From contig NC_057749.1 in assembly GCF_004010195.1 (NCBI RefSeq), positions 8,965,787-9,029,786 on the forward strand: 64,000 nt of DNA, given 5' to 3'. The notes beneath the pieces were generated by a model. The model ran no database searches. It was not told the DNA's origin and was given only the letters and a program-made list of their open reading frames with translations. Positions 3,323 to 59,622 of this stretch are shown here, one piece after another (the stretch's first letter is position 1; each line of letters begins with the position of its first letter). The stretch comes from Chiloscyllium plagiosum. Taxonomy: Eukaryota. The position numbers and the translations under genes were made by a program.

Positions 3323-3362
3323 TCACTGAAGATGTTACTCAGTATGGTGACGAAACTTCTGA
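3323..3362 (+). ncRNA. Minimal type I hammerhead ribozyme motif, PLE family D (this copy is slightly mutated)
   Basis: tca CTGAAGA t gttac-tcagtatg-gtgac GAAA ct TC tga; stem I tca/tga. Related copies lie on - at about 1764-1803 and 26990-27030. Confidence 0.6.
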
Positions 3363-4097
3363 AAACAAACCTTCCAGCTCAGTGAGCAAACCTACATCCA
3401 GAACCTTAACCTGAGCTACAAATCTTCTCAAAACTCGCTATGTTCTCCCTGTGTCTGCATGGGTTTCCTCCCACTGTCCAAAGGTGTGCAGGTTAGCCCC
3501 TGGAGAGAGGATATTCTTGTGGCGATGCCTCCCACGGTGCAGTAGTGCCACCAACTCTCACTGTGAAGACTCACAGCTGAGTGTTGGCCACTGGGAAAGG
3601 AGTGAGAGAACCTGTCCTGGAGGTATGACAATCAGCAATAGCTTGACAAGAAAGGACAGGGCGAGAGAAACATTGCAAATCTCAGAGGAGGAAGACTTTC
3701 CCTTCCCTATCAAAAAAAAGACATTCTCTTCAAGAAAGAAATTAAGATATTTTCTAGCTGGAATTTGTCCTTTGAAGCAGTGAAGTTAGTTTACGTACAT
3801 GTATTTTCTTAAAGGTGACACAAGGGGGCAGTATTAGCTCTGCATGTCAGCTATAGTAAGTGGCAAGCATTTGAGCTATTTTTCCCAGCATGCCTTTCAC
3901 CCTGAGAGCTCTGAACTTGTCCTTGTGTTGTGTACCATGGCAATGACTGCAAAATGAAATAAGACCAGAAATGAAACTCCTCTAATTCACATAAATGAAT
4001 GGAAACTAAAACAGAGTCATTGAAACCGAATAATGCACCTTCCATTCCATAATATCAAAACATCCTTGCTGCCAAGGCAACAGGAAGTTTGAAAGAT

Positions 4098-4412
4098 TAG
4101 TTTAGATTCGCTACAGTGTGGAAACAGGCCCTTCGGCCCAACCAGTCCACACAACCCTCCGAAGAGTAACCCACCCAGACCCAATTCCCTCTGAATGATG
4201 CACGTAACACTATGGGCAATTTAGCATGGCCAATTCACCTGACCTGCACATCTTTGGACCGTGGGAGGAAACTGGAGCACCCAGAGGAAATCCACGCAGA
4301 CACGGGGAGAACGTGCAAACTCCACGCAGACAGTTGCCCGAGGCTGGAATTGAACAGGGACCCTGGGTGCTATGAGGCAGCAGTGCTGACCACTGAGCCA
4401 CCTTGCCACCCC
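4098..4412 (-). mobile_element. HE1 SINE, near full length
   Basis: tRNA-like head, central domain and CR1-type tail ending in (tctaa)-like repeats. Confidence 0.9.
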
Positions 4413-5137
4413 ATGAAAGCCAGCAATGGGCTACAATACAAATTTGAAACTAACAACTGCGCCTTGCCAAACTTTAGACCATAAAATATAGGAACAGAAT
4501 TAGGCCATTCGACCCATCAAGTATGGCTGCTAGGTTTCTCAACCCCACTCCCCATAACCCTTGATCCCCTTACTAATACAGAATTACAGTTTGTGTTTTA
4601 TTGGAAGCCACTGCTTTCTCTCCTGGCTGAGTTATAACTTCTGTTTCTCTCATATCGAGCTCCATGTGATACAGCCCTCCACCCATGTCTTGTTCTACTG
4701 GACTTGAGGCTGTTAATCCTCTGGGATTCCTCTGGAGCTTCCTGGACTTGAAAACTAATCCCTGAACTATCCTCGTTCTTTCCCATTAACCCAGGGGTTA
4801 CGTCTTTTTAATAAAATTCTCACTAACGTAAGCAGAACTCTTCTGAGAATGATTAAACGCGACTAAAATTAACTTTCCCCTGATTTTACTCACAGGCAGT
4901 GTCCCAGAAAGTAGCATCGATTGTTGAGAAAACCCATCTGGTTCACTAATGTCCTTTAGGGAAGGAAACTGCCATCCTTACCTGGTCTGGCTTACATGTG
5001 ACTCCAGACCCACAGCAATGTCGTTGACTCTCAACTGCCCTCTGGGCAATTAGGGATGGACAAGCCCGTAACACAAACCTTTTATCAATTAATTAAAAAA
5101 AGCCCCTCAATTCAAGGGCAATTCAGGCATGACAACA

Positions 5138-5392
5138 AGGGTGGCACAGTGGCTCAGTGGTTAGTGCTGCTGCCTCACAGCACCAGGGGTTCGATTCCAG
5201 CCTTGGGTGACTGTGTGGAGTTTCTGTGTGATTCCGTTCACAGTCTAAGGATACACAGTTAAGTGCATTAGCCATGGTAAATGCAGGGCTACAGGAATAA
5301 GGTAGGGGGTTGGGTCTGTATGGGTTGCTCTTCGGAACGCTGGTGTGGACTCAATGGGTCGAATGGCCTGCTTCCACACGGTAGGGATTCCA
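5138..5392 (+). mobile_element. HE1 SINE, internally deleted
   Basis: ggtggcacagtggctcagtggttagtgctgctgcctcacagcacc head and tail ...gaatggcctgcttccacacggtagggattc. Confidence 0.8.
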
Positions 5393-5394
5393 TG

Positions 5395-6365
5395 GTAAAA
5401 AATGGATGAAAATGTCAATGAGTGGGTTAGTAAGTTTGCAGACAATATGAAGATCGATGGAGTTGTGGATAGTGGAGAAGGTTCCTCATGGATACAGTGG
5501 GATATAGTTCAGTTGCAGCTCTAAGCAGCGAAATAGCAGATGGAGTTTAATCCGGGTAAGTGTGAGGTGCTGCACTTTGGTAGATCAAATGTTAAGGAAA
5601 AGTATACAGTTACTGGCAGAATCCTGAGTAGCATCGATGTACAGAGAGATCTTGGGGTTCAAATCCATAACTCCCTGAAAGTAGCCACACCTGTAGTTAG
5701 GGTGGAAAGGAAGGTGTATGGCATGCTTGCCTTTATTGGTCGGGAAATTGAGTACAAGAGTCAGAATGTCATGTTGCAGCTTTATAAGACTTTGGTTAGG
5801 CCACACTTAGAGTATTGTATTCAATTCTGGTCGCCACATTACAGAAAGGATGTGGATGCTTTGGAGAGGGTGCAGAGTAGGTTTACCAGGATGCTGCCTG
5901 GATTAGAGGGTATGAGCTATAAGGAGAGGCTGGTAAAGCTCAGGTTATTTTCTCTGGAGCGGCAAAAACTGAGGGGAGATTTGAGAGAAGTCTATTAAAT
6001 TATGAGATGCATAGATAGAGTTGACAGTCAGAATCTTTTTTCCCGGAGTTGAAATGTCTAATAGTAGGGGGCATGCATTTAATATGAGAGGGGGAAAGTT
6101 CAAAGGAGATGGGGAGGTGGGGGGGGGGGGCAAGTTTTTTACACAGAGAGTGATAGGATTCTGGAATGCACTGCCGGGGGTGGTGGAGGAGGCTGGTATG
6201 ATAGGGCTGTGTAAGGGGCTTTTAGATAAGGACATGAATATGCAAGGAAGGCAGGGATATGGACCATGTGCAGGCAGGAGGGGTTAGTTTAATTTGGCAT
6301 CATGTTCAGCACAATATTGTGGTCTGAAGGGACCATTCCTCTGCTGTACTGATCTACATTCTAGG
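5395..6365 (+). mobile_element. CR1/HER1 LINE 3' fragment (end of RT, thumb, C-terminus and 3' UTR)
   Basis: KFADN remnant at about 5432; ORF 5540-5998 MEFNPGKCEVLHFG...RDLGV...LYKTLVRPHLEYCIQFWSPHY...LERVQSRFTRM...LRGDL; continues in ORF 6021-6287 with RGHAF...FFTQRVIGFWNALP. Confidence 0.95.
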
Positions 6366-6919
6366 TTCGAAATGCTGGCCCTCTCATTGACGCCCACATG
6401 CCACGAAAGAGGTGGAGGGGCAAAGGAGGGGGAAGATGGGGGGTGATGGAGGGGTAGATAGAAGGTTGAAAGAGTTGGAAATGGGGTAAGCTCAACATCC
6501 CCTCCCCCTACCCCTTTCCCCTCTAAACAACTATTGCAACCCTGCTCCCCCAAACCTTCACCCTGGGGTCACACAGAATTTGAGGCATTAAAGTGGAGGG
6601 GGGCTGGGGCAAGGAGCTCACACTGGGGGATCACATGGTGGAAATCAAAACTGAAAGGGATCGGAAGGCATGCAGGAAACCAGATCACAGTGAGGTCTCA
6701 GATACACACCTCTTCACAAGCAGCAGCTCTTCATGATATCCTCTTCCAAGCCCCGTGAGGGAACCGAAACAAACATCAGAGCGAGGGCAGTTTGTTTGCA
6801 AAATGCTCGTGGATTGTCCATGACTTTCAGTTTGATTAATGGGTTGTTCTGTGCCACTTTCAACAGTCTGAATGTCTCTGCCTCAGGAAAAACCAGTTGA
6901 GTCCCAAAATATTCATAAA

Positions 6920-7017
6920 GGAAAACAGAAATTGTTGGAAAAGCACAGCAGGTCTGGCAGCATCTGTAGAGAGAAATCAGAGTTAACGTTTCAGGTCGAG
7001 TGACCCTTCCTCAGAAT
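6920..7017 (-). mobile_element. PLE family C terminal fragment with an intact hammerhead core
   Basis: Minus strand: tt CTGAGGA a gggtc-actc-gacct GAAA cg TT aa ctctgatttctctctacagatgctgccagacctgctg. Confidence 0.75.
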
Positions 7018-7149
7018 GCAATCCCAAAAATACCCGTGCTTGTCGAGATGATCTTCAGGTGATTCTTTTTTTGTCTCCAATTCACACGTTTCTCATGTCT
7101 GGAAGATCAAACTTCCTAAATGTCAGCGGCAGTATTGTCGAAGAGAGCT

Positions 7150-10200: not shown

Positions 10201-10296
10201 TTCCTGAAGAAGGGCTCATGCCCGAAACGTCGATTCTCCTGCTCCTTGGATGCTGCCTGACCTGCTGCGCCTTTCCAGCAACACTTTTTCAGCTTC
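10201..10296 (+). ncRNA. PLE family A fragment with an intact minimal hammerhead core
   Basis: tc CTGAAGA a gggc-tcat-gccc GAAA cg TC ga at 10202-10233. Confidence 0.7.
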
Positions 10297-10626
10297 ATTG
10301 TCACCTTGACTGGGACAGATTAATTGAATTTAAAATCCACTCTGGTTGGGTTGGTGGGATTTGAGCTCATGTTCCTGGAGCATTAAACTGGGTCTCTGGC
10401 TTCGTAATCCAATGCTTCCCCCCTAATTGGAATAGGGCAGTTTAAAGAGAGACTTCACAGAATCACAGAGCTATTCCAGTGTACAGTAGGAGGCCATTCA
10501 GCCCATCGCGTCTGCCCTGTCTCACCAAATGGGCATCATGAGTTAGTGACATCTGAAAAAGTGTTCTAAATCATGTCAGATTTAGACAGAGCAAACAGGG
10601 AGAAACTGGAAAGAGCCTTTAGTGTT

Positions 10627-10940
10627 TAGATTAGATTAGATTACAGTGTGGAAACAGGCCCTTCGGCCCAACAAGTCCACACCGACCCGCCGAAGCGCAA
10701 CCCACCCATACCCCTACATTTGCCCCTTATCTAACACTACGGGCAATTTAGCATGGCCAATTCACCTGACCCTGCACATCTTTTGGACTGTGGGAGGAAA
10801 CCGGAGCACCCGGAGGAAACCCACGCAGACACGGGGAGGACGTGCAAACTCCACACAGTCAGTCGCCTGAGGCGGGAATTGAACCCGGGTCCCTGGCGCT
10901 GCGAGGCAGCAGTGCTAACCACTGTGCCACCGTGTCGCCC
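10627..10940 (-). mobile_element. HE1 SINE, young CpG-rich subfamily
   Basis: Nearly identical to copies at 41980-42283, 48324-48637 and 63864-64000; (tctaa)n tail. Confidence 0.95.
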
Positions 10941-11473
10941 ACTATGCCACCGTGCCTTGTTAACTACACGTGACAGATAGATGGTAGTTGGTCACTCAGA
11001 AGAGAGAGGAGAATTCCTACACGCTCTCTGGAATGTGCTGCCTAAAAGGGCAGTGAAGCAGTTTCAATAATGACAGTTTCAAAGAGGTGTCAGAAGGGGA
11101 TAAAGCAATGAAGTGGGACTAATTGGATATTCCACCATTCACATAAGATGTTAAATCAAGCCAGGCCTCTCAGATCGGCAGAAGTGAGGACTGCAGGTGC
11201 TGGAAACCAGAATCTAGATTAGAGTGGAAAAGCACAGCAAGTCAGGCAGCATTTGAGGAGCAGGAAAATCGACGTTTCAGGCAAAAGCCCTTCATCAGGA
11301 ATGCCATATGAAATCCCATGGTACTGCTTTCAGGAAGAACGAGAAATCCTCCTTCATCTCCTGCATGTCCCTTTATCGGCATCAGTGAGAACCACATTGT
11401 CTAGTCATTATCACATTGCTGTCTGTGGGAGGCTGTGTGCAAGCTGACTGTGGAGTTTCCTACATTACAATAT

Positions 11474-11805: not shown

Positions 11806-13228
11806 TGATTCCAGATTTTCAAAAAATTGAATTCAAATTCCACCATTAGCTGAGTTTCTGGATTAATAGTCTAACAATAATACCATTAGGCCATCACCTC
11901 CCCCTTAATATGGGTGCTGACTGTCGGGAGGATTTTCCTTCAAACACAAAGTGTCAGAGAGTCCCTGCCAGACAGTGACGTAATCTAATGTGTGTCTGGG
12001 ACATTGTGAGTCTGACTATGGCAGGCTGTTGCTTAGTCTGTGAGACAGCTCTCCCACTGCCTGTAAAACATGTTGAGATGTCCTGAAGTCATGATAAGAT
12101 GCTGTAAAAAGTGCAACTCTTCCAGTATCTCAAAGAGCTAGCACAGGTATGATGGGCTGAGTTAACTCCCTGTGTGCTGTTAGCTTGCAGATACTTTCTA
12201 ATTGAAGTGTTCAGTGATGTGACAACGCAGCTCTGGAGCAGGTGGGACTTGAAGCCAGTCTGTGCAATTTGATTGTAAAATTCTTAGAATGAGCACCTCA
12301 GGACAGGAACAGGAGAAAATTGTAAATTAAGAGAGGGGAGAAAAAACACAGGCTTGGTGAGTCATTTGCCACTGGCAGAGGTTTCTGGCATCAATTACTG
12401 CTCTGTGTTACACTAAAGCCTTTATAGCTCGCCCACAGTGAGCTGTCATCTTGTACACATTCATCACAATTCCATTGAACAATCAAGCACATTAATAGAC
12501 AGGAAATGGCTTGAACTGCCATGGAGACCACTGTGAATGACATCAATGCTTAAAGATCTTGCTGGGGAAGCATGTCATAAACTGATTGGAATTAATGAGC
12601 CCTTGTTACTGCATTAGCAGAGCAAGGGAGATTCACAGAGCGTTAGCCCTACTGCATCAGGGCTCTTGATTGAGCTGTCAATGTTCTATCCATTTGTTCG
12701 TTTCAACACATTACTGGGTTCAAATTCATTTCAATTACTTTGTAGCATGCTATGTTTGTCTGCGTCTTGCCTCTTGGCACTGTCCAAGCAGATAGCAAAA
12801 GTATTGGAAGTACAAAAGTATTGAAGGAGGAAGTCTTTTGAGCAATGATAATGTCTCAAGATGCAGACTGCAATAAACAGGTCAATACTTTGCATTCTGG
12901 TTCTATTCAGAAGCAAATCAATAAAGGGAAACTTCAGTAACTGATAGCATTAGCATCAACAGGTCTTTATTGATGTGTGTATATGTGTATGTGTATATGT
13001 GTGTGCTACTGTGATCCCAGCTCATTAATAGACCAGACAAGTCAGATCCCACAATATATTCCATTTAATATGATGGCCAGTCATTGAAACATCGTCACAC
13101 CAGGCTGCAGAAGCTCCTTTAACACCAGGACAGAAGCTCATTACATTTTTAAAAAAACAAAATTAAAACAAAAACAAGCTATCTAAATACAGAACACAAT
13201 TCAGAAAAAAAAAGAATATACTGAAGAA

Positions 13229-13314
13229 CCACCTGATGAAGGAGCAGCGCTCCAAAAGCTAGTGCTTCCAATTAAATCTGTTGGACTATAACCTGGTGTT
13301 GTGTGATTTTTAAC
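13229..13314 (+). mobile_element. PLE family B terminal fragment with hammerhead motif
   Basis: cac CTGATGA a ggagc-agc-gctcc aAAA gc TA gtg cttccaattaaatctgttggactataacctggtgttgtgtgatttttaac. Confidence 0.75.
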
Positions 13315-14545: not shown

Positions 14546-14641
14546 CCCATCGAAAAGTTATTTTTAACACTTCTTTACATGCTGCGTCAGATCCAACCAG
14601 GGATCAGACTATTTTGGATCCAGTAGTGTGGCTTAATAAAC

Positions 14642-14960
14642 GATGATGTGGAGGTGCCAGTGTTGGACTGCGGTGGACAAAATTAAAAATCACATAACAC
14701 CAAGTTATAGTCCTACAGGTTTATTTGGAAGCACTAGCTTTCAGAGCGCTACTCCCTCATCAGGTAACTAGTGGGGCAGGATCATAAGGCACAGAATTTA
14801 GAGCAAAAAATTGCACGACAATGTAATCTTTTTCTATAAATTCTGTGTCTTATGATCCTGTACCACTGGTTACCTGATGAAGGAGCAGCGCTCTGAAAGC
14901 TCGTACATTACTTTCAGATAAACCTGTTGGACTGTAACCTGGTGTTGTGTGATTTTTAAT
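14642..14960. mobile_element. PLE family B inverted-repeat insertion with a hammerhead motif in each arm
   Basis: About 14682-14808 is the reverse complement of about 14828-14960. Motif tac CTGATGA aggagcagcgctct GAAA gc TC gta starts at 14871. Flanked by taataaacgat / taataaatgat. Confidence 0.8.
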
Positions 14961-19049: not shown

Positions 19050-19500
19050 CTGGTGGCTCAATGGTAAGTTCTGCTGCCTCACAGCACCAGGGATCCGGGT
19101 TCAATTCCACCCTTAGGTGACTGTTTGTGTGGAGTTTGCAAGTTCTCCCTGTGTCTGCGTGGGTATCTGCTGGTATGCCAGTTTCCTCCCACAGTCCAAA
19201 CTTGCTAAATTGCCCATAGTGTTCAGAGGTGTGTAGGTTAGGTGGATTAGCCATAGTCAAAAAGTATGATGCTGGAAAAACACAGCAGGTCAGGCAGCAT
19301 CCAAGGAGCAGGGGAATCAATGTTTTGGGCATAAGCTTTTCATCAGGAATGCGCCATGGGAATTAGAAATTTTCGGCTTAGCCATAGGAAATGTATGCTT
19401 ACAGGATAAAGGGAAGGGTCCAGGTGGGATGCTGTTCGGAGAGCTGGTGTGGGCTTGTTGGGCCGAATGGCCTGATTTCATGTATGGATTCTATTCTATG
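19050..19500 (+). mobile_element. HE1 SINE with a PLE family A fragment nested at about 19258-19352
   Basis: SINE is interrupted at ttagccatag, which recurs after the insert. Confidence 0.75.
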
Positions 19501-44554: not shown

Positions 44555-45345
44555 AGATAAATGCGAGGTGCTGCATTTTGGAAAAGCAAATCAGAGTAGG
44601 ACTTATTCACTTAATGATAAGGTCCTGGAGAGTGTTGCTGAACAAAGAGACCTTGGAGAGCAGGTTTCATAGTTCCTTGAAAGTAGAGTTGCAGATAGAT
44701 AGTGAAAAAGGTGTTTGGTATGCTTTCCTTTATTGGTCAGTGCATTGAGTCCAGGAGTTGGGAGATCATGTTGTAGCTGTACAGGACATTGGTTAGGCCA
44801 CTTTTGGTATATTGTGTGCAATTCTGGTCTCTCTCTTTTAGGAAGGATGTTGTTAAACTTGAAAGGGTTCAGAAAAGATTTACAAGGATGTTGCCAGGGT
44901 TGGAGGGTTTGAGCTATAGGGAGAGGTTGAACAGGCTAGGGCTGTTTTCTCTGGAGCGTCAGAGGCTGAGGGGTGACCTCACAGAGGTTTATAAAATCAT
45001 GAAGGGCATGGATAGGGTAAATAAACAAGGTCTTTTCCCTTCGGGTGGAGGAGTCCAGAACTCGAGGGCATAGGTTTAGGGGGTGAGGGGAAAGATATAA
45101 AAGAGACCTAAGGGGCTCAGAGGGTGGTACGTGTATGGAATGAGCTGCCAGAGGAAGTGGTGGAGGCTGGTACAATTGCAATATTTAAAAGGCATCGGGA
45201 TGGTTATATGAATAGGAAGGGTTTGGAGGGATATGGGCCAAGTGCTGGCAAATGGGATGAGATTAGGTTGGGATATCTGGTCGGCAAGGACAAGTTGGAC
45301 TGAAGGGTCTGTTTCTGTGCTGTACACCTCTATGACTCTGACTCA
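44555..45345 (+). mobile_element. HER1/CR1 LINE 3' fragment
   Basis: KCEVLHFGK...; ORF 44789-45073 VRPLLVYCVQFWS...LERVQKRFTRMLPGLEGLSYRERLNRLGLFSLERQRLRGDL. Confidence 0.95.
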
Positions 45346-46260
45346 ATGATCTCCTCACAAAAATTATCTGATTTCCAGTGACATTTGCAGCATGCTTACT
45401 GTCCATCCCTAATAGAGAAAGTCTTAGAGATGAACACAGAAACAAACCCTCCAGTCCAACTTGCTCATGCCAACCAGATATCCTAAATTAATCTAGTACC
45501 ATTTTCTTAAATATCTCCATATTTAAGAAAGGATATATCAGCATAGGGAGGAATTCAAAAGAGATTCACTAGACTGATTCCTGGGATGAAGAGGGTGATT
45601 TATCAAGAATGGCTAAACTGGTTCGACCTTTATTCATTAGCATTTAGAAGAATGAGCGGTGATCTTATTGAAACATAGAAGATTCTGAGGGGGGTGTTGG
45701 GATAGATATTAGTCAGGGACATGAAACTATGGGATGTAGCTACACAATGTGCGGGCACTCAGTTAGCACAAAGATACAAAGAATTGTCTCCTCCCAGGTG
45801 TCACTGAATATCCGCAGAGTTGAGAAATTACATTCTGTATGGAAATAGATGGATAAGAAAATTCCAGGCAACTTTTCCGAAAGATCAGAAGAAAGACCTC
45901 AGCCAGTCATTGGAATTTTAGGAATAGGAGCAGAGTAGGACATTCAGCCCCTCTATTGTGCTCTGCTAGCCAAAACGATTACGGTTGATCTGATTAACTC
46001 AACTGTCTCTCTTGTCTCCCCTCCACGTTTGAGTCCCATGTCAATCCAAAATCTGACCGCCTCCTCTATGAATATATTCAATGACTTAGCCTCCACTTCT
46101 GCCCAGAGGGAAATAATTCTGAAGATTAGATTAGGTTCTCTACAGCATGGATACAGCCTGTTTGGCCCAACAAGTCCACACCAACTCTCTGAAGGATAAC
46201 CCGCCCAGACCCATTTCATTCTGAATAATGCACCGAACACTATGTGCAATTTAGCATGGC

Positions 46261-46596
46261 CAATTCACCTGGCCTGCGATTCACCTGGCCTGCAATTCAC
46301 CTGGCGTGCAACTCACCTGGCCTGCAACTCACCTGGCCTGCAACTCACCTGGCCTGCAATTCACCTGGCGTGCAACTCACCTGGCCTGCAACTCACCTGG
46401 CCTGCAATTCACCTGGCCTGCAATTCACCTGGCGTGCAATTCACCTGGCCTGCAACTCACCTGGCCTGCAACTCACCTGGCCTGCAATTCACCTGGCCTG
46501 CAACTCACCTGGCCTGCAACTCACCTGGCCTGCAATTCACCTGAACGCAACTCACCTGGCCTGCAATTCACCTGGCCTGCAACTCACCTGGCCTGC
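46261..46596. repeat. 16-bp minisatellite caa(c/t)tcacctggc(c/g)tg, about 21 copies, inside an antisense HE1 SINE (46125-46760)
   Basis: Head-to-tail units with no spacers, expanded from the SINE segment caattcacctgacctg. Confidence 0.95.
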
Positions 46597-47368
46597 ACAT
46601 CTTTTGGGCTGTGGGAGGAAACTGGAGCAAACCCATGCAGACACAGGGAGAATGTGCAAACTACACACAGACAGTTGCCCGAGGCTGAAATTGAACCCAG
46701 GTCCCTAGCACTGTGAGACAGCAGTGCTAACCACTGAACCACCAAACCACCGTGCCACCTCTAATTAACTAGTAACCACTGGAAGACAAGAAATTCCTCC
46801 TCATCTTTGTCTTAAAAGGGAGGTCCCTTATTTTGAAAGGCTACAAGAACGGATTTGCAAGAGATGAATAAAGCACAGGGTTATCCGATGTACCAACAAC
46901 ACACAGCCCATAAAATCCCTGCTTTTGTTTTGACAGCTAATGCAGCAACAGCGAGGGTTGACTCACATCCAATACATTAATTAATAACCCTGCAATGACA
47001 TTTCTCTTTAATGCTGGCCAGAATTGCTAATTGCATTGGAATAGCTCGTCAGTGAAGCATTCAGGAGAAAACTCAAAGTGGAGCAACCTTTGATTTCGAG
47101 TGAGGAGATAACACATTCAGAGAGATGAATCGAGTTGACATGAAAGACAATTGGTGCAGCTGATGATGTGGCCCAACACATGATGTGCAGGTGTAACATT
47201 TGCTCATCTTATTATTGCGTATCAGAAACGTTTGAACATCCTGCCACAGATTCAGATTGACACCCATCCCCACATTTAACACTTTAAGTGCCAGTGTCGC
47301 TTTTCCTTTCAAGATAGAAAATAGTAAAGATTCAAATAATACCAGAGCAAGTTTTGCATTTATGTAGC

Positions 47369-47548
47369 CCGAAAAGTGTGGCGCTGGAAAAGCACAGCAG
47401 GTCAGGCAGCATCTGAGGAGAATCGACTTTTTGGGCATCAGCCCTTCATCAGGAAGTTTTCCTGCTCCTAGGATGCTGCCTGACCTGATGTGCTTTTCCA
47501 GCGCCACACTTTTTGACCCTGATCTCCAGTCCTCACTTTCTCGTAGTC
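47369..47548. mobile_element. PLE family A inverted insertion
   Basis: Arms fold back at about 47455; TSD gcatttatgtagc (47356-47368) / gcatttatttagc (47549-47561). Confidence 0.8.
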
Positions 47549-48323
47549 GCATTTATTTAGCACCTCTCAAGATCAAGCACTTTTCGAGCTTTTGCAGTGC
47601 CGTCACTGTCCTACTGTAGGAACCACGACACCTGATATGCACATAGCAAGTTTCCAGCTGTCAATCAACAGGGAGGTTGCTGCCTGTGGGACAAATGTAT
47701 GCTCAGACTCAAAAATTGCTGGAGAAACTGGAGTTAACATTTCCACTGACCTTTCAATCTGGACTCACAATGTTAACTCAGCTTTCTTTTTGCAGGTGCT
47801 GCAAGGCTTGCAGAGTTTCTCCAGCAATTTCTGCTTTTGTTTCATGGAAGCCCTACAGTGTGGAAGCAGGCCATTCTGCCCATCAAGCCCACACTGTTTC
47901 TTTGAAGAGCATCCCACCCCCTACCCTATCCCTGCATTTCCCATCTACACATCCCCAGACACTACGGGCAATTTAGCATGGTCCCTCCACCGAACTGCAC
48001 ACGTGGGAAGAAACCAGAGCAAACCCGTGCAGACACGGGGAGAATGTGCAAACTCCACACAGACAGTCACCTGAGGTGGGAATCAAACCTGGGACCCTGG
48101 CGCTGTGAGGCAGCAGATGCTAACCACTGAGCCACCACACTTCAGACCTTTAGCATCCACAGTTCTTTCTTTGAATCGCCTGAGCTCCCTGGCTTTTGTT
48201 TACATAGCGCCAATGGATTTTTTACAGCTGACCTGAAAGGATAGACTGTGTGCCTTGGATTAACATTTGTTCCAAAGGGCATATCTTCAGACAGGGTCTC
48301 TAACCGTGATCCTACTCATCTGA

Positions 48324-48637
48324 TTTAGATTAGATTACTTACAGTGTGGAAACAGGCCCTTCGGCCCAACAAGTCCACACCGACCCGCCGAAGCGTAACC
48401 CACCCATACCCCTACATTTACCCCTTTACCTAACACTACGGGCAATTTAGCATGGCCAATTCACCTGACTTGCACAGCTTTGGACTGTGGGAGGAAACCG
48501 GAGCCCCCGGAGGAAACCCACGCAGACACAGGGAGAATGTGCAAACTCCACACAGTCAGTCGCCTGAGTCGGGAATTGAACCCGGGTCTCTGGCGCTGCG
48601 AGGCAGCAGTGCTAACCACTGAGCCACCGTGCCGCCC
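48324..48637 (-). mobile_element. HE1 SINE, young subfamily, full length
   Basis: Intact tRNA-like A and B boxes and (tctaa)n tail. Confidence 0.95.
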
Positions 48638-48863
48638 ACGAGGAGACGAAGCTAGCCACAGCACCATGTTCACACTTTATCAGACCCCCTTCCTGCCTAT
48701 TTTTAATCACTGCCTCTTTTCTCATATTTCCCTGGATAACGAGATTGACTCCAGATATCAGGGGTTTGTCTATAGAAGAGAGATTAAGCAGGTTAGGTCT
48801 GTACCCTCTGGAGGTTAAAAGAATGAGAGGAGATCTAATTGAGGTATGTGAGACACTCGTGGG

Positions 48864-49545
48864 GATTGAATTGAATTTATTATCACGTGTACCAAGGCAC
48901 AGTGAAAAGCTTTGTCTTGTGAGCAATACAGGCAGATCACAGAGTTAGGTAGCAGATAGTAAATAATAGGTAAGCAGTGGAAAAAACACAGGTAAGGGCA
49001 AATGTTCAGAGTTTCAGAGTCCAATCAGTATTCTAACAACAGTCGGGTAGAAATTGTTTTGAAACCAGCTGGTGTGTGTGTTCAGGCTTCTGTACCTTCT
49101 CCCCGATGGTAGAGGTTGTAGAAAAACATTGCCAGGGTGGGATAGATCTTTGAGAATGCTGGCAGCCTTTCCTTGACAGCAGGCCTGGTAGATGGACTCA
49201 ATAGATGGGAGGTTGGCCTTTGTGATTGTCCAGGTCGAGTTCACCGCTCTCTGTAACCATCTCTGGTACAGTTGCCATACTAGGAAGTGATACATCCAGA
49301 CAGAATGCTCTCAATGCCGCATCCATAAAAGTTGGCAAGGGTATTCGCCATCATGCCAAATTTCCTCAGCTGCCTGAGGAAGAAGAGATGTTGTTGGGCC
49401 TTTGTAACCAGTGCGACCACATGAAGAGTCCAAGAATGCTTGTTGTAGATGATCACTCCCAGGAGCTTGACACTCTCCACTCGTTCCACCTCTGTGCTGT
49501 TAATGTGTAGGGGGCATGAATAACATCCCGCCGAAAGTCAATAAT
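48864..49545 (-). mobile_element. Rex1/Babar LINE 3' fragment nested in a CR1 fragment (48740-49885)
   Basis: ERVESVKLLGV...KAQQHLFFLRQLRKF...FYGCGIESILSGCIT and LPSIESIY...AASILKDLSHPG...LPSGRRYRS...NNFYP are Rex1 C-terminal motifs; tail aataaattcaattcaat; gattga on both flanks. Confidence 0.9.
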
Positions 49546-50579
49546 GATTGACAAAGTTGATGTAGAGAGGATATTTTCACTTATGGGGCAATCTGGAACG
49601 AGAGGTCATAGTTTGAGGAGAAGGGTTAGCAGAGATCAGGATGAGTTCCTCTCTCCAAGGGTAGAAATCACTGCCCCAGAATACGGTGGATGCCGGATCA
49701 TTGAGTAAATTTATGGAGGAGGTGGGCAGATAGTAATGGGTGGGAAGGGATATGGAGACCGGGCAGGAAGGTGGAGTTGAGGCCAGGATGAAATCGGCCA
49801 TGATCGTGCTGAGTGGAGTGGAGGAACTAGAGGGGCTGTATTACCTCCTCCTTCCTCTAATTCTTCTGTCCTTATGTTCTGTATTTCACACATTACCCAG
49901 CCTACAGGCACGCTGGCATGCAAGCTGCGTGGGAGATGCTGGTTGAATTGCCAACTCTTACTGTCACCCCCCCCCCCCCCCCCAACAGCTTGGCAAATGC
50001 ATGGGAATTATGGCAGAAATTAGAATCTTAACTATGACTAACAGCAATCTTTCACAACTGGAATAGAAGCCTTCAAACAAGACTTACCTTATGTAGGGTG
50101 AAAGCGAAATACTGCGATTGCTGAAGATCAGAAATAAAAACGGGAAGTGCTACAGAAACACATGATACTCGGACTCTGTTCCTCCCTCAGGCCTTTCTTC
50201 AGCACTTTCTGTTTATGCTAACTTACTGAGGATCCAACTTTCTGAACTATTCAACTCTGAATTAACATATTTTTCAGATCTCTTGTTTCCCAGTTCACTG
50301 TGGGAAACAACAGCGGCACCTCCTAGTTATTTTCTCCATCTGTTTTAAGCCCATTCTGTCTCCCATATGCTGCTGCTGCCAATTGCAACCATTTCCCTCT
50401 GGATCCATGATGATATTTCATGCTTTATTCCTGGCAGGGCTGTGTTTGACTGTGCATCAACATGTAGTAGGTGCCATGGACTCTTGTGATGTAATGGTAA
50501 TGGAGGTCTGTATTCGAGTCCAGAGGTGTGCCATGTTCGAACAGGTTGGTGAACAATATTGAAAGTAGGTGTCAGTGAG

Positions 50580-51180
50580 TTATAGAGTCACAGAGATGTA
50601 CGACATGGAAACAGACCCCCTTGGTCCAACTCGTCCATGCTGACCAGATATCCGAAATTAATCTAGTCCCATTTGCCAGCATTTGGCCCGTATCCCTCTG
50701 AACCCTTCCTATTCATGTCCCCATCCAGATGCCACTTAAATGTTGTAATTGTACCAGCCTCCACTACTTCATCTGGCTGCTCATTCCATACATGCACCAC
50801 CCTCTGTGTGAAAAAGTTCCCCCTTACTTTCATTTTACAACTTTTCCCTCTCCCCCTTAAACCTATGCCACCTAGTTTTGGACATCCCTATCCTGGGACA
50901 AATACCTTGTCTATTCACACTATCCATGCCCCTCATGATTTTATAACCTCTGTAAGGTCACCCCTCAGCCTCCAGTGCTTCAGGGAAAATAGTCTCAGCC
51001 TATCCAGCCTCCCAAGTCCTCCAACTTGGCAACATCCTTGTAAATCCTTTCGGAACCATTTTAGGTTTCACAACATCTTTCCTATAGCAGGGAGCCCAGA
51101 ATTGAACGTGGTATTCCAATAGTGGCCTAACTAATATCCTATACAGCCACAACATAACCTCCCAATTCTTATACTCAGTT
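50580..51180 (-). mobile_element. HER1/CR1 LINE 3' fragment
   Basis: LYRILVRPLLEYHVQFWAPCYRKDVVK...FTRMLP and the HER1 3' UTR. Confidence 0.9.
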
Positions 51181-51878: not shown

Positions 51879-52320
51879 CCTGTTACCTGAGATTCCAATC
51901 ACAAGACGTTCACTCATTTTCAACCTTTGGTATTTTTCATCTCAGAAAGCGAACAATGATTATTCTAACAGATGCAGCCACAGCAATACATCCCTGAGTG
52001 CAACTATTTAAAAGTGGCTGCTCTTTTCTCATCTGGCCCCACCAAGGTTTTGAGAAATGAGCAGCAAAATTTAAACTGCCATTGTCCCCAAACGTACAAA
52101 AATGCTGTAAATGATGGTCAATTTGAGGTCACCCAAAATTCTACTGCCCACATTCCAACTCACACCAAGAGCCCATTCATCCTCCTGAGCTTGTTGATCT
52201 ACATTCACCCCTGATTAAACTTCTCCTCTCTTTCTCTCTTATGTCTGCTTTGAAATCTATTTCTTTGACCTAGCCTTAATATGGCTTCAGTGGATCAGTA
52301 CTATGTTCTGTTTTATAATG

Positions 52321-52531
52321 GATCAGTGGTGCTGGAAGAGCACAGCAATTCAGGCAGCATCCGAGGACAGGCAAAATCGACGTTTCGGGCAAAAGCCCTT
52401 CATCAGGAATAAAGGGCTTTTGCCCGAAACGTCGATTTTGCCTGTCCTCGGATGCTGCCTGAATTGCTGTGCTCTTCCAGCACCACTGATCCAGAATCTG
52501 GTTTCCAGCATCTGCAGTCATTGTTTTTACC
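52321..52531. mobile_element. PLE family A (variant) inverted insertion, very young
   Basis: About 80-bp arms are perfect reverse complements; perfect 14-bp TSD tctgttttataatg at 52307-52320 and 52532-52545; intact CTGATGA agggc-tttt-gccc GAAA cg TC on the minus strand of the left arm. Confidence 0.9.
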
Positions 52532-53589
52532 TCTGTTTTATAATGCATCTGTGGAGAGCTGTGGGATCAAAGGCACTACATAAATACAAGGTTTTGTTGT
52601 TTCTTGTTTGATATTATAAAGTTAAATATGGTACAGTGCTTTCCAAATACATTTACAATTCTATCCTGTTTCAAAAGTAAACATTACTTGGGTATGTGTT
52701 ACTGCCCTCAAGTAACCTGTGCTCCACAATAAATGGACAAGACCCAACAAATTATGAAAGTTGGCAAGACTCTACTGACTTAGTCTTTAACTTAACTGTG
52801 AGAAATAGCTGGTGTGCAGTGGAGTCTGCTCTCCTCCTTGCAAACAGTGTAATGCCTTTCTTATTTTAACTAACAGAAAGGGATTATATCACCATAGTAT
52901 CTGGTCAAACTGTTCTCGTTTTTCCGCCAGTCGTAGGCTGAAGGTGTGTTTAATTGTCCACTTTAGCAAACAAACAACTGTCAAGCAACTAATGCAATCA
53001 TTGTCATGTGTGGCAAGTTGGCAGGAATTTCTGATTTCCCAATCTGTTTTATGAGTTGATCTTAAAAGTGTCTCAGAGCTGAACGTGGCCAATTAAATAA
53101 TATTGTGACCATAAAGCACAGCGCTGGCAAATTGATAACTGTGAGAGTTGTATTTGTCTTTGAAGGCAATGCTGTAATTCCAGGTTTGAGTGAGAGGAAA
53201 GGGTACCTCAGGTTGTCAGGCATCTCTGACTGTTAACACCTCAAACTGCCATGTATAAGTTGTCATCTGTGGACAATACTTTGGCTTGAGTCAGGAGGTC
53301 GTGCGTTCAAACCCCATTCTCCATAATTAAAACAGATCATCTGTGATAACACTGCAGTGCAATACTGAGGGAGTCCTTCGTTGTCAGTGGTGCTGTCTTT
53401 TAGATGAGTGCTTGAGCCAAGTCCATGCTTTTACCTGTGGGTCCTGTGACAATGTTTTGAAGTCACGCAACACCAGGTTATAGTCCAAAAGGTTTACTTG
53501 AAATCACAAGTTTTCTGAGCGCTGCCCTTTCATCGGGTGAAGTAATTTGGACAGTGACTACATTTCCTTTTTTTAGGAAACAGGATTTT

Positions 53590-53892: not shown

Positions 53893-54190
53893 CAGTGCCA
53901 GTCCAAGGATTGCACCCATGAATGTAATTCCAGTGAGCTGGGGCATTGGAGAGTATTCACAACAGGAAACCGGTTCCTAGAGTCAGGAACACCAACCCAC
54001 CTGAAAGGTTTTGAGAAATGAGCAGCAAAATTTAAACTGCCATTGGGAAGCTGCATTTGTGCCTTCCACTCAATTAAGATCACACTGCTCCCTCCCCCCA
54101 CTCCTGCCACTCGCATTCTGCCAGCTCCAGAGAGGCCTGGTCAATTCCCCCAGTATTCCTGATCACCTTTCCATGTTGCAGTGTAGATAA

Positions 54191-54431
54191 GAGCTGAAAA
54201 TGTGTTGCTGGAACAGCGCAGCAGGTCAGGCAGCATGCAGGGAACAGGAGAATCGACGTTTCGGGCATAAGCCCTTCTTCAGGAAACAAATGCAGCTTCC
54301 CAATGGCAGTTTAAATTTTGCTGCTCATTTCTCAAAACCTTTCAGGTGGGTTGGTGTTCCTGACTGTAGGAACTGGTTTCCTGTTGTGAATACTCTCCAA
54401 TGCCCCAGCTCACTGGAATTACATTCATGGG
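54191..54431. mobile_element. PLE family A end fused to an inverted copy of adjacent host DNA
   Basis: PLE at 54191-54285; 54286-54435 is the reverse complement of 53911-54060; 14-bp TSD tgcagtgtagataa. Confidence 0.9.
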
Positions 54432-55352
54432 TGCAGTGTAGATAAACCCTCTGCTGAATCTCCTTTGTTATTCTCCCATGTTCCACCTCTATCATTCCTG
54501 CTCAAAGGGGCAGGTTTACATATTTCCTAAGCAGGGATGTAAAGAGTGCAGTTATAAATGATGGAGACCAATGTTACGCAAATCTTCAGAGTCATAATAA
54601 ATCAGCTATTCGTGGGAATTCATCAACTCATTGTGTAACTCACCCACACCTTCGGCACACAGGCTGTTTGGTTTGGTACTAGTTGCATGAAAGAAACCAA
54701 ACAAAGCTTGGAGTGGGCTGCAGCTGGAAGCATTTACAAATAAGGTTGAGTGGCCATCACTTTGGGAGCCATGTTGCAGATGCTAGCAGACTGCCTGTGA
54801 TGTTACAGCATTACAGGGGGGGGCTGCAATATATATTGTGATAAAGGTCACTGCAGTCTTACCAGACCGTAGAGTAACTGTCTGATTGGAGAAAGAGATG
54901 ACTACTGGTGGTTTAAACTGAGGGTCCCCACATTATCAGGTGAGGAGTGAGGTTACCTTTATGGTAACCTTAGCCGATGCAGGAATTGAACCCCTCACAC
55001 TACATCACAAACCAGCCATGCGAGCTAACCGACCTCCCAGTATGCTGTATCACATTCACTTCATTGACTTTTTGAGGAACTAAATGTAAAATCTCTTCAC
55101 ACTCATGTTGTTTTTGATTCAGTTCAGTTTAGTGTACAGCTTGTAATTCTCATCTGGACCGCCATCTCAGCATCTCGCCCCAGTATCCTGTCTGATGCTT
55201 CAGAGTCACATTGTGTCATCTGAGACTGTTCATAGCAGGGGTGTGTGTGTGTGTGCATTGTGTTGTACAGTACAGTACATGTATAGTACATATTTTAGTT
55301 GCTGGGTATGAAACACAACATTTCCCTAAGTCACAGGCCCAATCCCTATACG

Positions 55353-55678: not shown

Positions 55679-56244
55679 CTTTTTCTATTTCATTCCATTA
55701 TTTTGCACAGCAAAAATTGCCCCAGTGTGAGACACTGTAATGCTTTTACTGTCCACATTCCCTCATATCAACATTATTCTTATGAGTAAAAGGTCCACAA
55801 TATAAGTAGTTTTGATATAAGTTGCATATTTCTGGGACATAACCACATAGTTTATCAATAGTCCCCTGTATAATGTGGAGACAGTGTTCTACAAGTGATG
55901 TTACTGGATTACTAATCCAAAGGATGAGCAGCCACTGAGGTGTGGGAATTGTGCCCAGCAGTGTATTCATTCCCTGATCTGGTATGTTCACACAAGAATT
56001 AGACATGGGTAATGTGATATTGAAAGATTCAACAGACGTTTGTTATAGCTGCTGGTACATGCCTAGATTACAGACACTTCACTGTCTTGGTTAAAACTAA
56101 GATATTTGCTTATAAACAGCAGTATGCCACACTTGTAGTGGCCCCAGTTAAAATGGAGTTTGAGATCTTACCACTCTCAGATCACAGTGTATGACACAGT
56201 GATAATATCATGAATATGTCTCTTAATGGGATATTGGTTTGAGC

Positions 56245-56870
56245 CACAGGGAGGGTCCCAGAGGACTGGAAAATCGCTAATGGAACACCCCTGTTTAAAA
56301 AGGGAGTAAGGCAAAAGAAAGGAAATTACAGGCCGGTTAGTCTGACCTCAGTCACCGGTAAGATTATGGAGTCCATTGTGAAGCATGAGATTTCTGAATA
56401 CTTGGAAGTGCATGGTAAAATAGGGCAAAATCAGCATGGTTTCATCAAAGAGAGATCATGCCTGATAAATCTGTTAGAATTCATTGAGGAAGTAACGAGC
56501 AGGTTAGACCAAGGAGAGCCAATGAATGCTATCTACCTGGAATTCAAGAAGGCCTTTGACAAGATGCCGCACAGGAGGCTACTGAGTAAGATAAGGGCCC
56601 ATGGTGTTAGAAGCCAGGTAATGGATAGAAGCCTGGCTGTCTGGCAGAAAGCGGAGAGTGGGATAAAAAGATCCTCCTCAGGGTGGAAGCCAGTGACTGG
56701 TGATGCTCCACAACTTTTCACTTTATACATTATTCATCTTGAAAGAAGATTTTGAGATTTGAAAGAGGTATTCAAAATTCATGAGGGTTTCGATTGAGTA
56801 AATTAGGAGAATTTTTATTAAGTTGTTGGTAACTAGAGAACACCAGTTTAAGATAACGGGTAAAAAAAAA
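56245..56870 (+). mobile_element. CR1 reverse transcriptase N-terminal fragment
   Basis: VPEDWKIAN.TPLFKKG...NYRPVSLTSV.GKIMESIVK...QHGFIKERSCLINLLEF...IYLEFKKAFDKMPH.RLL. Confidence 0.93.
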
Positions 56871-57960: not shown

Positions 57961-58350
57961 TGGTATTTGCAGTATCGTGTCTGGTCAATAATAACTTGCT
58001 GAAAGTTGGCAGATTCAGCAATGATAATGGTTTTGGCTTCTGTAGAAACAGATTGTAACCCTGTTCAGTCTAAAACCAGGTGTATGTACACACTTCATAT
58101 GTAGAGGCCAACAATGAATAGAACAAGCAACAGTGACTTCCATTTTAATAGCCTCTTTACTGTAAGGAAACACTACAGACCATTTCACATGAGCATACTT
58201 AAACTAAATCTGATATCAACACCACAGGAGCAATCTAAGACAGCAAGCTTTGTCATTGAGGGGGTTTTAAGGAGAATCCTACAAGAGGAAAGAGTCATAG
58301 GTGGAAAAGGAAAATGCAAATCTGTAACACCTGTAGTAGAATCAGGCCAT

Positions 58351-58594
58351 GATTAGAGTGGTGCTGGAAAAGCACAGCAGGTCAGGCAGCATCCGAGGAG
58401 CAGGAAAAATTGATGTTTCGGGCAAAAGCCCTTCATCAGGAATGAGGCTAGGGGCCTCCCCGTTCCTGATGAAGGGCTTTTGCCAGAAACATCGATTTTT
58501 CCTGCTCCTTGGATGCTGCCTGACCTGCTGTGCTTTTCCAGCACCACTCTAATCTTGACTCTAATCTCCAGCATCTGCAGTACCCACTTCTGCA
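58351..58594. mobile_element. PLE family A inverted insertion
   Basis: Arms at about 58351-58442 and 58463-58554; perfect 14-bp TSD tagaatcaggccat at 58337-58350 and 58595-58608. Confidence 0.9.
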
Positions 58595-59039
58595 TAGAAT
58601 CAGGCCATACCAAGAACCTTCTGAAACATGGGCATGGTTGTAATGCCACCAGGTAATGTAGTCAGTTTTCACAGTGCAGAAGGTGATGGCCCAGTGGTAT
58701 TATGGCTAGATTATTAATCCAGAGACACAGGTAATGTTCCAGGGAATGGTGTGCAGATCCCACCAGGTCATGGAATTTGAGTTCAATACATTAAAAGCAA
58801 TCTAAAGACGGCCACGAAACCAAGTGTTGGGGAAAAGCCCACCTGGTTCCCTAATATCCTTCAAGGGAAGGAAATCAACCACCCATATCTGGTCTGGCCT
58901 ACATGTGACTCCAAGCACACAGGAATGTGGCCAACTCTTAATTGTCTGCTGGGCAATGAATAATAAATGCTGACCTAGCCAGTGGTGCCCACATTCTGTG
59001 AATGAATGAAAATAAAATGGTATTGACAGGAATAGGATC

Positions 59040-59445
59040 CAGCCTGGTGGAGCGGTCCCTCCAACCCAATGTGGCGGTCTGTTGGCGGCCCGGAATGGCC
59101 TCAGCATGGGCCTCCAGCCTCAAGGTGATTCCAGCATGGTCACCAGGCCTCGAGAGCCTTGGGGTGGAGTCTGGCACGGTCTGGAGCCAAGGCCTGCTGC
59201 GGACTGGGTTAGATGGACCGTTGGTCTGAACTTTTTACTTTGCATTTTCTAATATATTCCTATGACCTGTAATGCTGGGCTTCTTATTTCTTTATTTTTC
59301 TAAGTTCTTTTCCTGAAGAACTTTTATTTAAGAATTTGCACCCAAGTACTTTGTACCTGAGCTGGAACAGTGAGTGGCCATTTATAAATTTTTCACTGTA
59401 CGCATTTGAGTACATGTGACAATAAAGCTCATTCTAATTCTAAAT
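59040..59445 (+). mobile_element. Non-coding retroposon with a Rex1-like 3' tail
   Basis: GC-rich 5' part, T-rich middle, tail ttttcactgtac...gtacatgtgacaataaa.ctcattctaattc; similar layout at 32067-32458 and 42410-42655. Confidence 0.5.
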
Positions 59446-59465
59446 GAATATTAATTGAACACCAG

Positions 59466-59622
59466 GAGAAAGTGAGGGCTGCAGATGTTGGAGATCAGAG
59501 CTGAAAATGTGTTGCTGGAAAAGCGCACATTCCTGAAGAAGGGCTTATGCCCGAAACGTCGATTCTCCTGTTCCTTGGATGCTGCCTGACCTGCTGTGCT
59601 TTTCCAGCAACACATTTTCAGC
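59466..59622. mobile_element. PLE family A inverted insertion with an intact hammerhead core
   Basis: attc CTGAAGA a gggc-ttat-gccc GAAA cg TC gatt at about 59529-59564; 16-bp duplication attaattgaacaccag at 59450-59465 and 59623-59638. Confidence 0.88.

Follow-up and report, generated by a model that had tools for sequence, protein, structure and literature searches.

The window analysed here, a stretch of 64,000 nucleotides of the genome of the bamboo shark Chiloscyllium plagiosum (RefSeq assembly GCF_004010195.1, contig NC_057749.1, positions 8,965,787 to 9,029,786 of the forward strand), contains no long open reading frame (ORF) and is scattered with short dispersed repeats that carry motifs of the hammerhead ribozyme. 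It was proposed from the sequence alone that these motifs belong to five sequence-distinct families of Penelope-like elements (PLEs), here called A to E, which share one minimal ribozyme architecture. Our analysis indicates that the motifs are very probably minimal type I hammerheads located on non-coding 3' end-pieces of PLEs, i.e., on pieces of their pseudo-long terminal repeat (pLTR) region.

Hammerhead motifs of the window and their architecture

When the window was mapped by BLAST, with natural copies from elsewhere in the genome as queries, 46 fragments were obtained (20 of family A, 10 of C, eight of B, five of D and three of E). Three of the B matches are artefacts of inverted-pair queries, and the ~43 fragments that remain, 4.7 kb in total, make the initial estimate of over 20 fragments in 64 kb an underestimate. 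The ribozyme position is spanned by 29 of them, and nine or ten head-to-head pairs are present (Table 1). A covariance model built from A, C and E recovered 20 window copies at E < 1e-4 and no B or D copy; it is a family model and not a model of the architecture, and base pairs were counted by script.

A loose descriptor (CTGANGA, 9-26 nt, GAAA; both strands) matched the window 20 times, compared to 4.93 +/- 2.15 matches (largest value, 11) in 100 dinucleotide shuffles; three of the 20 matches (1168-, 36842- and 59881+) belong to no family. With a strict descriptor (CUGANGA, one base, a helix II of 4-6 bp, a loop of 3-8 nt, GAAA), 16 matches were found, whereas 200 shuffles gave 0.045 on average and never more than 1, and all 16 sit in dispersed repeats of thousands to more than 100,000 copies. 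Every coordinate named in the sequence-only reading was checked and found to carry the motif described there, including the two family E motifs that had been called degenerate: the copy at 31281 has A9>G and G12>A, and the one at 33613 has C3>G. Further copies of families A, B and D are added in Table 1. A ribozyme was regarded as fully intact if it matched the strict descriptor and also possessed the palindromic ACGU or AGCU, a base other than G at position 17 and a helix I of at least 2 bp. This holds for nine of the 16 strict matches, or nine of the ~31 copies that reach the ribozyme position. The core or helix III is broken in both E copies, in the B copy at 13233 and in several C and D copies, and the family A ribozyme at 2100 runs into a stretch of N (2127-2677).

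The type I core (C3 U4 G5 A6 N7 G8 A9 ... G12 A13 A14) and a paired stem II are present in 16 window copies. The extra base that had been noticed after CUGANGA is real; it is U in family D and A in the other four. Among aligned copies, A occupies this position in 31/31 of B, in 31/32 of C and in 9/10 of E, and U does so in 12/12 of D. The genome-wide patterns for B-E left this base unconstrained, and the expected base was read by eye in ~94-98 of the 100 matches listed per family. Stem II of families A-E is GGGC/GCCC, GGAGC/GCUCC, GGGUC/GACCC, GUUACC/GGUGAC and GAGUC/GACUC, respectively, with the closing pair G10.1-C11.1 in all five; as proposed, its sequence varies between families and the pairing is kept, with compensatory changes at 10.2, 10.3 and 10.4. 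The A15.1-U16.1 pair is present. Position 17, which the search patterns did not constrain any more than the tetranucleotide from A15.1 or helix I, is mostly C in A (43/50), A in B (24/31), U in C (26/32), C in D (11/12) and U in E (10/10), with G in 0, 2, 3, 0 and 0 copies of families A-E. The palindromic stem III could likewise be traced across the families, intact or in its CpG-decay forms: from A15.1 onwards, ACGU occurs in 32/50 A, 10/32 C, 3/12 D and 5/10 E copies and AGCU in 31/31 B copies, and the other tetranucleotides are mostly the decay forms ACAU and AUGU.

Helix I, of 2-4 bp, has its own sequence in each family: C-G (41/50), U-A (47/50), a U/U mismatch and then A-U (37/50) in A; C-G, A-U, C-G in B; U-A, U-A, G-C in C; A-U, C-G, U-A in D; and U-A, C-G, G-C, A-U in E. 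Pairing was far rarer at most positions when the partners were slid by one or two positions. The covariation of family B stem I (cac/gug versus uac/gua) that was seen in the window recurs on the genome side, where the pair is C-G in 22, U-A in three, U.G in two and a C/A mismatch in one of 31 copies. As support for activity, these short helices would be weak. When two A cores were cofolded, the minimum-energy dimer paired GAAACGUCGAUUC with itself and not in the catalytic ACGU:ACGU register, and thus thermodynamics alone lends no support to an active dimer. In the predicted minimum-energy fold of one family A stub RNA (59529-59625), the CUGAAGA box pairs with UUUUCAG at the stub 3' end; such a panhandle would hide the catalytic core, and it is not conserved in the older A copies (A2, see below) or in other families.

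CpG sites mutate 3-5 times faster than other sites in these copies, CpG positions differing in 0.16-0.30 of copies. Since the C at position 11.1 precedes G12, the C/U alternative at this last base of stem II sits on a CpG. The c/t variant that had been noted there does exist, but it is a product of CpG decay and not a tolerated wobble, and the same is true of ACAU and AUGU in place of ACGU. Conservation was measured at the non-CpG positions of 56 A copies that span the ribozyme and were not chosen by pattern. In the older and more diverse A2 copies, mismatch rates were 0.011 in the core, 0.048 in helix II and 0.121 in the 3' region; in the young A1 copies they were 0.043, 0.022 and 0.050, respectively. 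The expected advantage of the core over its flanks is thus seen in A2, whereas core and 3' region are about equal in A1, where equality is uninformative because dead copies decay neutrally. The A2 contrast and, above all, the comparison between families show constraint on the source elements. The families themselves are not equally distinct. A, C and E have homologous 3' regions (z-scores of 4.8-15 versus shuffles), and those of B and D are unrelated to A/C/E and to each other, which leaves three unrelated 3' regions: the proposal of five sequence-distinct families holds for B and D but not for A, C and E, which are relatives. A MAFFT alignment of all five families misaligned B and D.

Link to Penelope-like elements and genome-wide load

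The link of family A to PLEs comes from two long copies, L007 and L010, in which 1.3 kb upstream of the ribozyme encodes, through frameshifts, the C-terminal part of a reverse transcriptase (with the YIDD motif) followed by a CX4CxxC linker and a domain of the form ...IIYC..C..GETGR..ERFREHL that ends ~350 nt before the A ribozyme. The L010 piece matches the NCBI bamboo shark protein P0001 (84% identity) and the intact protein P0004 of 894 amino acids (48%). In Pfam, P0004 scores 23.6 bits for GIY-YIG (PF01541; cut-off 22.6) and 24.9 bits for RVT_1, below the cut-off of 29.6, and P0001 scores 21.7 bits for GIY-YIG. The zinc-finger-like CX4CxxC linker is a trait of the Neptune and Nematis clades (PMC8557442). 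In family B, remnants of the reverse transcriptase and linker (50-55% identity to L010) lie in the copy L050 ~400 nt upstream of the B ribozyme and on the same strand. The pieces are therewith connected to an ORF with reverse transcriptase and GIY-YIG domains in family A, through the homologues P0001 and P0004, and in part in family B.

The second line of evidence is structural. According to the accessible text of two reports (PMC8557442, PMC11167929), PLEs can be recognized by a common 3' end with an optional tail of 30-40 nt and by an adjacent inverted 5'-truncated copy. We sampled 123 A copies that reach the 3' region and were not chosen by pattern, with positions counted relative to the C of CUGA. 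Their 3' ends fall at +81 to +97 in 36 copies and at +114 to +134 in 72 copies, i.e., into two classes ~35 nt apart, and tails are likewise seen in B, C, D and E. An inverted arm is present within 160 nt upstream in 21 of 50 A copies, and among 24 close ribozyme pairs (window and loci taken together) 14 are head-to-head, seven of these being 6-28 nt apart.

Several observations weigh against the assignment to PLEs. Curated Rfam hammerhead covariance models, which represent canonical forms with longer helix I and helix III, gave no window match at the gathering score or at E <= 10, and stem I is short. A search of Pfam and of PDB sequences with the decayed L010 pieces returned nothing useful, so that the GIY-YIG call rests on the homologues; ESM Atlas gave GIY-YIG only as a minority label, a lead that was not used as support. 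In the window, tblastn with the reverse transcriptase and endonuclease pieces of L010 found nothing at E < 1e-3, and a Pfam search of 145 ORFs of at least 75 amino acids (of 172) found one RVT_1 and one ALKBH8_N piece, neither of them tied to the ribozyme families. The window is devoid of PLE coding sequence, and its copies are thus non-coding 3' stubs. Families C and E would be placed among PLEs by tail homology with A together with the tail and inverted-pair signatures, and family D by these two signatures alone.

The load of the whole genome was estimated by counting exact-core patterns on both strands of the 3.56 Gb assembly, with reversed patterns as controls. There are 126,899 exact cores of family A, 28,416 of B, 4,386 of C, 3,558 of D and 852 of E, or 164,111 in all five families, which corresponds to one per ~22 kb; the reversed control gave a single match for family C and none for each of the other families. 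The very large ribozyme-bearing PLE complement that was suspected from the window is therefore real. The window itself holds eight exact A cores, compared to 2.3 predicted from the genome average.

Every architectural feature described in the sequence-only reading is already in print. Cervera and De la Peña (2014; PMC4209133) reported that the pLTRs of metazoan PLEs carry minimal type I hammerheads that form large, covarying consensus families within a genome. These ribozymes have a base between positions 9 and 10.1, a G10.1-C11.1 pair, a palindromic 15.2-16.2 and a helix I down to 2 bp; their copies are mostly solitary and truncated, opposite-strand pairs occur, and activity in vitro is low and limited to dimers. 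The shark motifs agree with that description in the type I core, the unpaired base between 9 and 10.1, the G10.1-C11.1 pair, the palindromic helix III and the short helix I, as well as in the presence of several covarying families in one genome, of mostly solitary truncated copies and of opposite-strand pairs. They differ from it in the host, a cartilaginous fish that is not mentioned there, in the number of copies (164,111 exact cores versus ~9,000 in Xenopus tropicalis and ~4,000 in coelacanth), and in the spacing of the opposite-strand pairs, which is here mostly 6-28 nt instead of 100-700 bp. A literature search found no paper describing these hammerhead motifs in sharks. As far as that search reached, what is new is the host group and how large its load is: a cartilaginous fish with an unusually large load joins the genomes known to carry Penelope hammerheads.

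Stub 5' ends and a possible transcription start site

Each piece consists of a few bases upstream of CUGANGA, the ribozyme, a fixed 3' end 60-90 nt further on and the optional 30-40 nt tail, and many pieces are head-to-head pairs joined at their 5' ends. Of the 123 sampled A copies, 66 begin between -14 and +4, with the mode at -3 (17 copies), 23 extend upstream beyond -15 and the other 34 are truncated inside. Starts between +5 and +64 mostly belong to the shorter arms of inverted pairs, and only 5/123 copies start at +26 to +30, around the cut site (+28), which is no more than at neighbouring positions. ATTC stands directly upstream of 83,189 of the 126,899 exact A cores, and the two commonest long forms, CTCATTC or TTTATTC, are found at 44,316 of them. 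It follows from these counts that about one third of the A cores continue upstream and about two thirds stop.

A TATA-like word is found upstream of the ribozyme in long copies of all families. It is TATAAA at -38/-40 in 12 of 16 long B copies, ATAAAT at -47/-46 in 20 of 34 long D copies and at -34 in four of five long E copies, TTTATC/TTATCT at -34 to -37 in at least 16 of 18 long A copies, and CATATAAAC or CATAAATAC at about -33, as judged by eye, in three long C copies. Measured from this word, stubs and inverted arms have their 5' ends 28-33 nt further downstream in each family. These ends are at about -3/-4 in A, -2 to -6 in C, -4 in E, -6 to -8 in B and about -17 to -20 in D; since those of D sit away from the ribozyme edge, it is the box and not the ribozyme that the ends follow. 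Initiator-like words are present in families A and C (tcATTCC and tcAGTTC), with their adenine at -4. Long D copies (L091-L150) also contain two or three tandem motifs of ~20 nt (ggaaatgacatcaccaca) upstream of their ATAAATAG box, at about -60 to -110.

PLE promoters lie in the pLTR, according to the accessible text of a review (PMC6765202), and no statement that a start site lies directly before the ribozyme was found in the accessible text of the PLE literature consulted. The reading that we favour, tentatively and with rather less than even confidence, is that the ribozyme is placed right at the 5' end of a pLTR transcript driven by a TATA/initiator promoter, with a leader of 3-19 nt, and that the more than 100,000 stubs (~105-140 nt) are full-length complementary DNAs (cDNAs) of uncut RNA. 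Transcription of the pLTR would begin at a TATA/initiator-linked site located 3-19 nt upstream of the ribozyme. The short RNA would then be primed at an internal reverse-transcription start, as in the element of the lizard Anolis described below, and copied to a full-length cDNA. The template RNA would not have been cut by its ribozyme, so that the stub keeps the ribozyme whole, and the stubs would be dead on arrival because they have no promoter. In the dimer model of the literature, two ribozymes would pair via the palindromic ACGU or AGCU, build helix III and cut after H17; the accessible text of the same review credits cleavage as dimers to Lunse et al. 2016.

If true, this would make the genome a fossil record of integration from uncleaved RNA in vivo. 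The leader would be 3-4 nt long in A, C and E, and helix I would use it up entirely in E and for the most part in A and C. The minimal helix I of 2-4 bp would then be dictated by the transcript 5' end, which would explain its shortness, and with a cut the RNA would lose its capped leader as well as the catalytic core. The huge number of copies also forms a natural record of the RNA that was reverse-transcribed. They retain the entire ribozyme and show no excess of starts at the cut site, in agreement with the in vitro result for the Anolis element.

RNA reads from a single-cell poly(A) library (X17) and contigs of a possible RNA run were mapped on positions 400-1800 of the long A copy L007; none of the runs registered as RNA contains this stretch, and no read of run X18 mapped. 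Of the 1,136 X17 reads that mapped, 1,110 did so only partly, 95% continue into unlike sequence, and both strands are covered. Read depth rises from ~19 to ~90 in the bin with the ribozyme 5' edge and to ~160-260 further on. We take these reads to be dispersed stubs co-transcribed within other transcripts, and the library decides neither on the start site nor on cleavage. Three reads and one contig contain a head-to-tail joint (1629 back to 1502, a unit of 128 nt), which stems from a head-to-tail dimer in the genome or else from a circular RNA.

A number of points speak against a start site before the ribozyme and an active hammerhead behind it. No discrete molecule starts or ends were found on L007 in the single-cell poly(A) reads, which thus support neither a start site nor a cut, self-cleavage after H17 being a prediction from the motif. 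The family A box, TTTATC/TTATCT, is a non-canonical TATA. The position of the D ends rests on eye reading of about seven of 50 copies (L092, L127, both arms of L131, L139, L142 and L145), the measure of 5' ends by ungapped extension being unreliable for D, whose subfamilies differ at -22 to -35. Finally, target-site duplications are weakly detectable, in 5/62 stubs compared to 1/62 controls.

The sharp 5' ends could instead arise from the PLE reverse transcriptase stopping or switching template where the ribozyme is folded or a protein is bound, which we consider unlikely but a serious alternative. In A, C and E no more than 2-5 nt separate the ends from CUGA, both arms of inverted pairs end there, as would fit template switching between two cDNAs, and discrete starts are missing from the RNA reads. 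However, a structural block should halt the enzyme 3' of the ribozyme, before it is copied, and not after. Moreover, the ends are ~17-20 nt upstream of CUGA in D and ~6-8 nt in B, yet they are 28-33 nt past the TATA-like word in each family, and families A and C possess the initiator-like words, of the form YYANWYY, with their adenine at -4.

It is far less probable that the short units are separate non-autonomous elements, i.e., animal non-LTR retrozymes or SINE-like units (SINE, short interspersed nuclear element) such as Schistosoma Sm-alpha, which use PLE enzymes and are not by-products of PLE insertion. The stubs do far outnumber the long copies, with only 23/123 A copies extending beyond -15 and L007 read depth going up ~8-fold or more at the ribozyme edge; the 128-nt joint in three reads and one contig is what such units would give; two C ribozymes stand 121 nt apart on one strand among the C matches listed; and, as far as the accessible text of a preprint goes (10.64898/2026.07.22.740005), vertebrate retrozymes derive from PLE pLTRs. 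Yet retrozymes are defined by head-to-tail tandem units with a ribozyme in each, and such units are not seen among the close pairs. Seven of the 24 close pairs of the window and loci share a strand, but none has the 105-140 nt spacing of the unit, and the four same-strand pairs that were cross-checked (L038, L055, L061 and L070 1202/1525) join different families. In addition, the stub has no promoter of its own, the TATA-like box being upstream of its 5' end, and it lines up collinearly with the 3' end of ORF-linked long copies. The idea that the motifs arose by chance, or are ribozymes domesticated by the host and without relation to mobile elements, to which the three loose matches outside any family could be credited, is refuted by the motif and copy counts: 16 strict matches were found against 0.045 expected, all of them in dispersed repeats of thousands to more than 100,000 copies, and in the young A1 copies decay is about as fast as in their flanks.

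Among the known systems that come close is the Poseidon element PAc of Anolis carolinensis (PMC11167929), as the accessible text describes it. There too, a hammerhead sits close to where pLTR and ORF meet, two internal start sites of reverse transcription correspond to an optional tail of 30-40 nt, and head-to-head copies would result from an endonuclease that cuts and extends both strands; the main insertion template is uncut RNA (in vitro), and no RNA-seq ends are seen at the cut site. PAc differs in that its ORF begins within stem II, whereas in the shark a frame opened at the AUG of CUGAUGA is soon closed in A and B, and in that family A possesses a CX4CxxC linker of Neptune/Nematis type. 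Animal non-LTR retrozymes, according to the accessible text (PMC7229834; 10.64898/2026.07.22.740005), are similar in being short non-coding type I hammerhead units from PLE pLTRs whose mobilisation is thought to use PLE enzymes, but they form head-to-tail arrays and circular RNAs, whereas the shark units are solitary or head-to-head. HDV-like ribozymes (HDV, hepatitis delta virus) of R2 and L1Tc non-LTR elements (PMC6765202, accessible text) also represent self-cleaving RNA at the very 5' end of a transcript. An HDV-like ribozyme cleaves upstream of its own sequence and remains part of the element RNA; a type I hammerhead, in contrast, cuts downstream of its core and would remove itself together with the leader.

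Copies and other repeats of the window

Table 1. PLE-derived copies in the window, with their ribozymes. "Named" and "added" mark motifs listed in, or additional to, the sequence-only reading; "strict" and "CM" stand for the strict descriptor and the A/C/E covariance model.
Copy	Position	Strand	Ribozyme	Listing	Evidence
A, stub	1148-1279	+	decayed		80% to natural A copies, model -7 to +124; CM E 7.9e-5
D, decayed copy	1722-1846	-			81%, model -46 to +78
A, left arm of head-to-head pair	1848-2015	-	1945-1972, fully intact	added	BLAST, strict
A, right arm of the same pair	2055-2126	+	from 2100, interrupted by N run 2127-2677	added	BLAST, strict
D, long copy with ATAAATAG box	3226-3440	+	3326-3355, stem III ACUU, non-palindromic	named	BLAST, strict
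C, stub	6913-7021	-	6985-7014, fully intact	named	BLAST, strict; CM, 62.6 bits
A, stub without tail	10201-10293	+	from 10204, fully intact	named	BLAST, strict
A, stub	11187-11303	-	11271-11298, fully intact, G.U at 10.1-11.1	added	BLAST, strict
B, stub	13222-13314	+	13233, G12 -> A	named	BLAST
B, left arm of head-to-head pair	14643-14811	-	14735-14763, fully intact	added	BLAST, strict
B, right arm, upstream TATAAAT box	14823-14959	+	from 14874, fully intact (stem I uac/gua)	named	BLAST, strict
A, decayed stub	19261-19351	-			BLAST, CM
C-like stub, strongly decayed (69%)	20720-20852	+			BLAST
D, long copy	26954-27129	-	26994-27027, ACAU (CpG decay)	added	BLAST, strict
C, decayed stub	29913-30045	+			BLAST, CM
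E, stub	31276-31401	+	31281, broken core (A9>G, G12>A, stem II mismatches)	named	BLAST
E, head-to-head pair 33554-33744	short arm 33554-33600; full arm 33606-33744	-; +	full arm: 33613, C3>G	named	BLAST
C, stub and partial C piece	35445-35556; 35551-35609	+; -	stub: 35455, decayed stem III	named	BLAST, strict
A, decayed stub abutting short A piece	36699-36844; 36826-36857	-; +			BLAST
C, head-to-head pair 42659-42915	42659-42763 (decayed); 42776-42915	-; +	right arm: 42779, decayed stem III	named	BLAST, strict
C, piece truncated within ribozyme	43420-43538	+			BLAST
A, head-to-head pair 47375-47545	47375-47455; truncated arm 47457-47545	-; +			BLAST
C, piece truncated within ribozyme	47759-47843	+			BLAST
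A, head-to-head pair 52319-52532	52319-52415; 52409-52532	-; +	left arm: 52379-52406, fully intact	named	BLAST, strict
B, decayed stub	53449-53540	-			BLAST
A, stub	54182-54285	-	54255-54282, fully intact	added	BLAST, strict
A, head-to-head pair 58351-58581	58351-58452; 58454-58581	-; +	58412-58439, ACAU; 58466, stem II mismatch	added (both)	
A, head-to-head pair 59464-59625	truncated arm 59464-59527; stub 59528-59625	-; +	stub: from 59533, fully intact	named	
A, head-to-head pair 61507-61721	61507-61636; 61629-61721 (decayed)	-; +	left arm: 61606-61633, AUGU	added	

Stubs and fold-back pairs of this kind matter for genome annotation as a source of false microRNA (miRNA)-like hairpins and of assembly gaps. 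The palindromes of head-to-head pairs draw weak matches of Rfam miRNA models at 1989-2083 and 52347-52466; the former coincides with the palindrome of a family A pair at 1991-2083, and the mir-641 model scores 47.9 bits on this palindrome, below its gathering score of 100. The assembly gap at 2127-2677 opens inside the right arm of the head-to-head family A pair 1848-2126. The family A stub at 54182-54285 is bracketed by a 150-bp inverted repeat (53911-54060 and 54286-54435, 98.7% identity) and may have been inserted into a fold-back element. Pieces of the family D upstream region stand alone at 2802-2877(-) and 56425-56518(-).

Other repeats of the window were also seen. The RVT_1 fragment (56243-56752, plus strand, E 4e-13) and the ALKBH8_N-like piece (49283-49537, minus strand, E 2e-9) are probably remnants of long interspersed nuclear elements, unlinked to the hammerhead families. 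A repeat of ~300 bp with more than 15 copies of 70-95% identity (4094-4411, 10625-10942, 41990-42272, 48324-48639, 33915-34208, 31657-31949 and others) looks like a SINE and has no relation to the hammerhead families. Another dispersed repeat, of ~500-600 bp and 65-82% identity, occurs at 5557-6368, 22819-23312, 30671-31205, 44676-45349, 50572-51177 and 61072-61504, and its ORFs have no match in Pfam. A tandem repeat with a unit of ~64 bp and 90-96% identity occupies positions 46244-46597.

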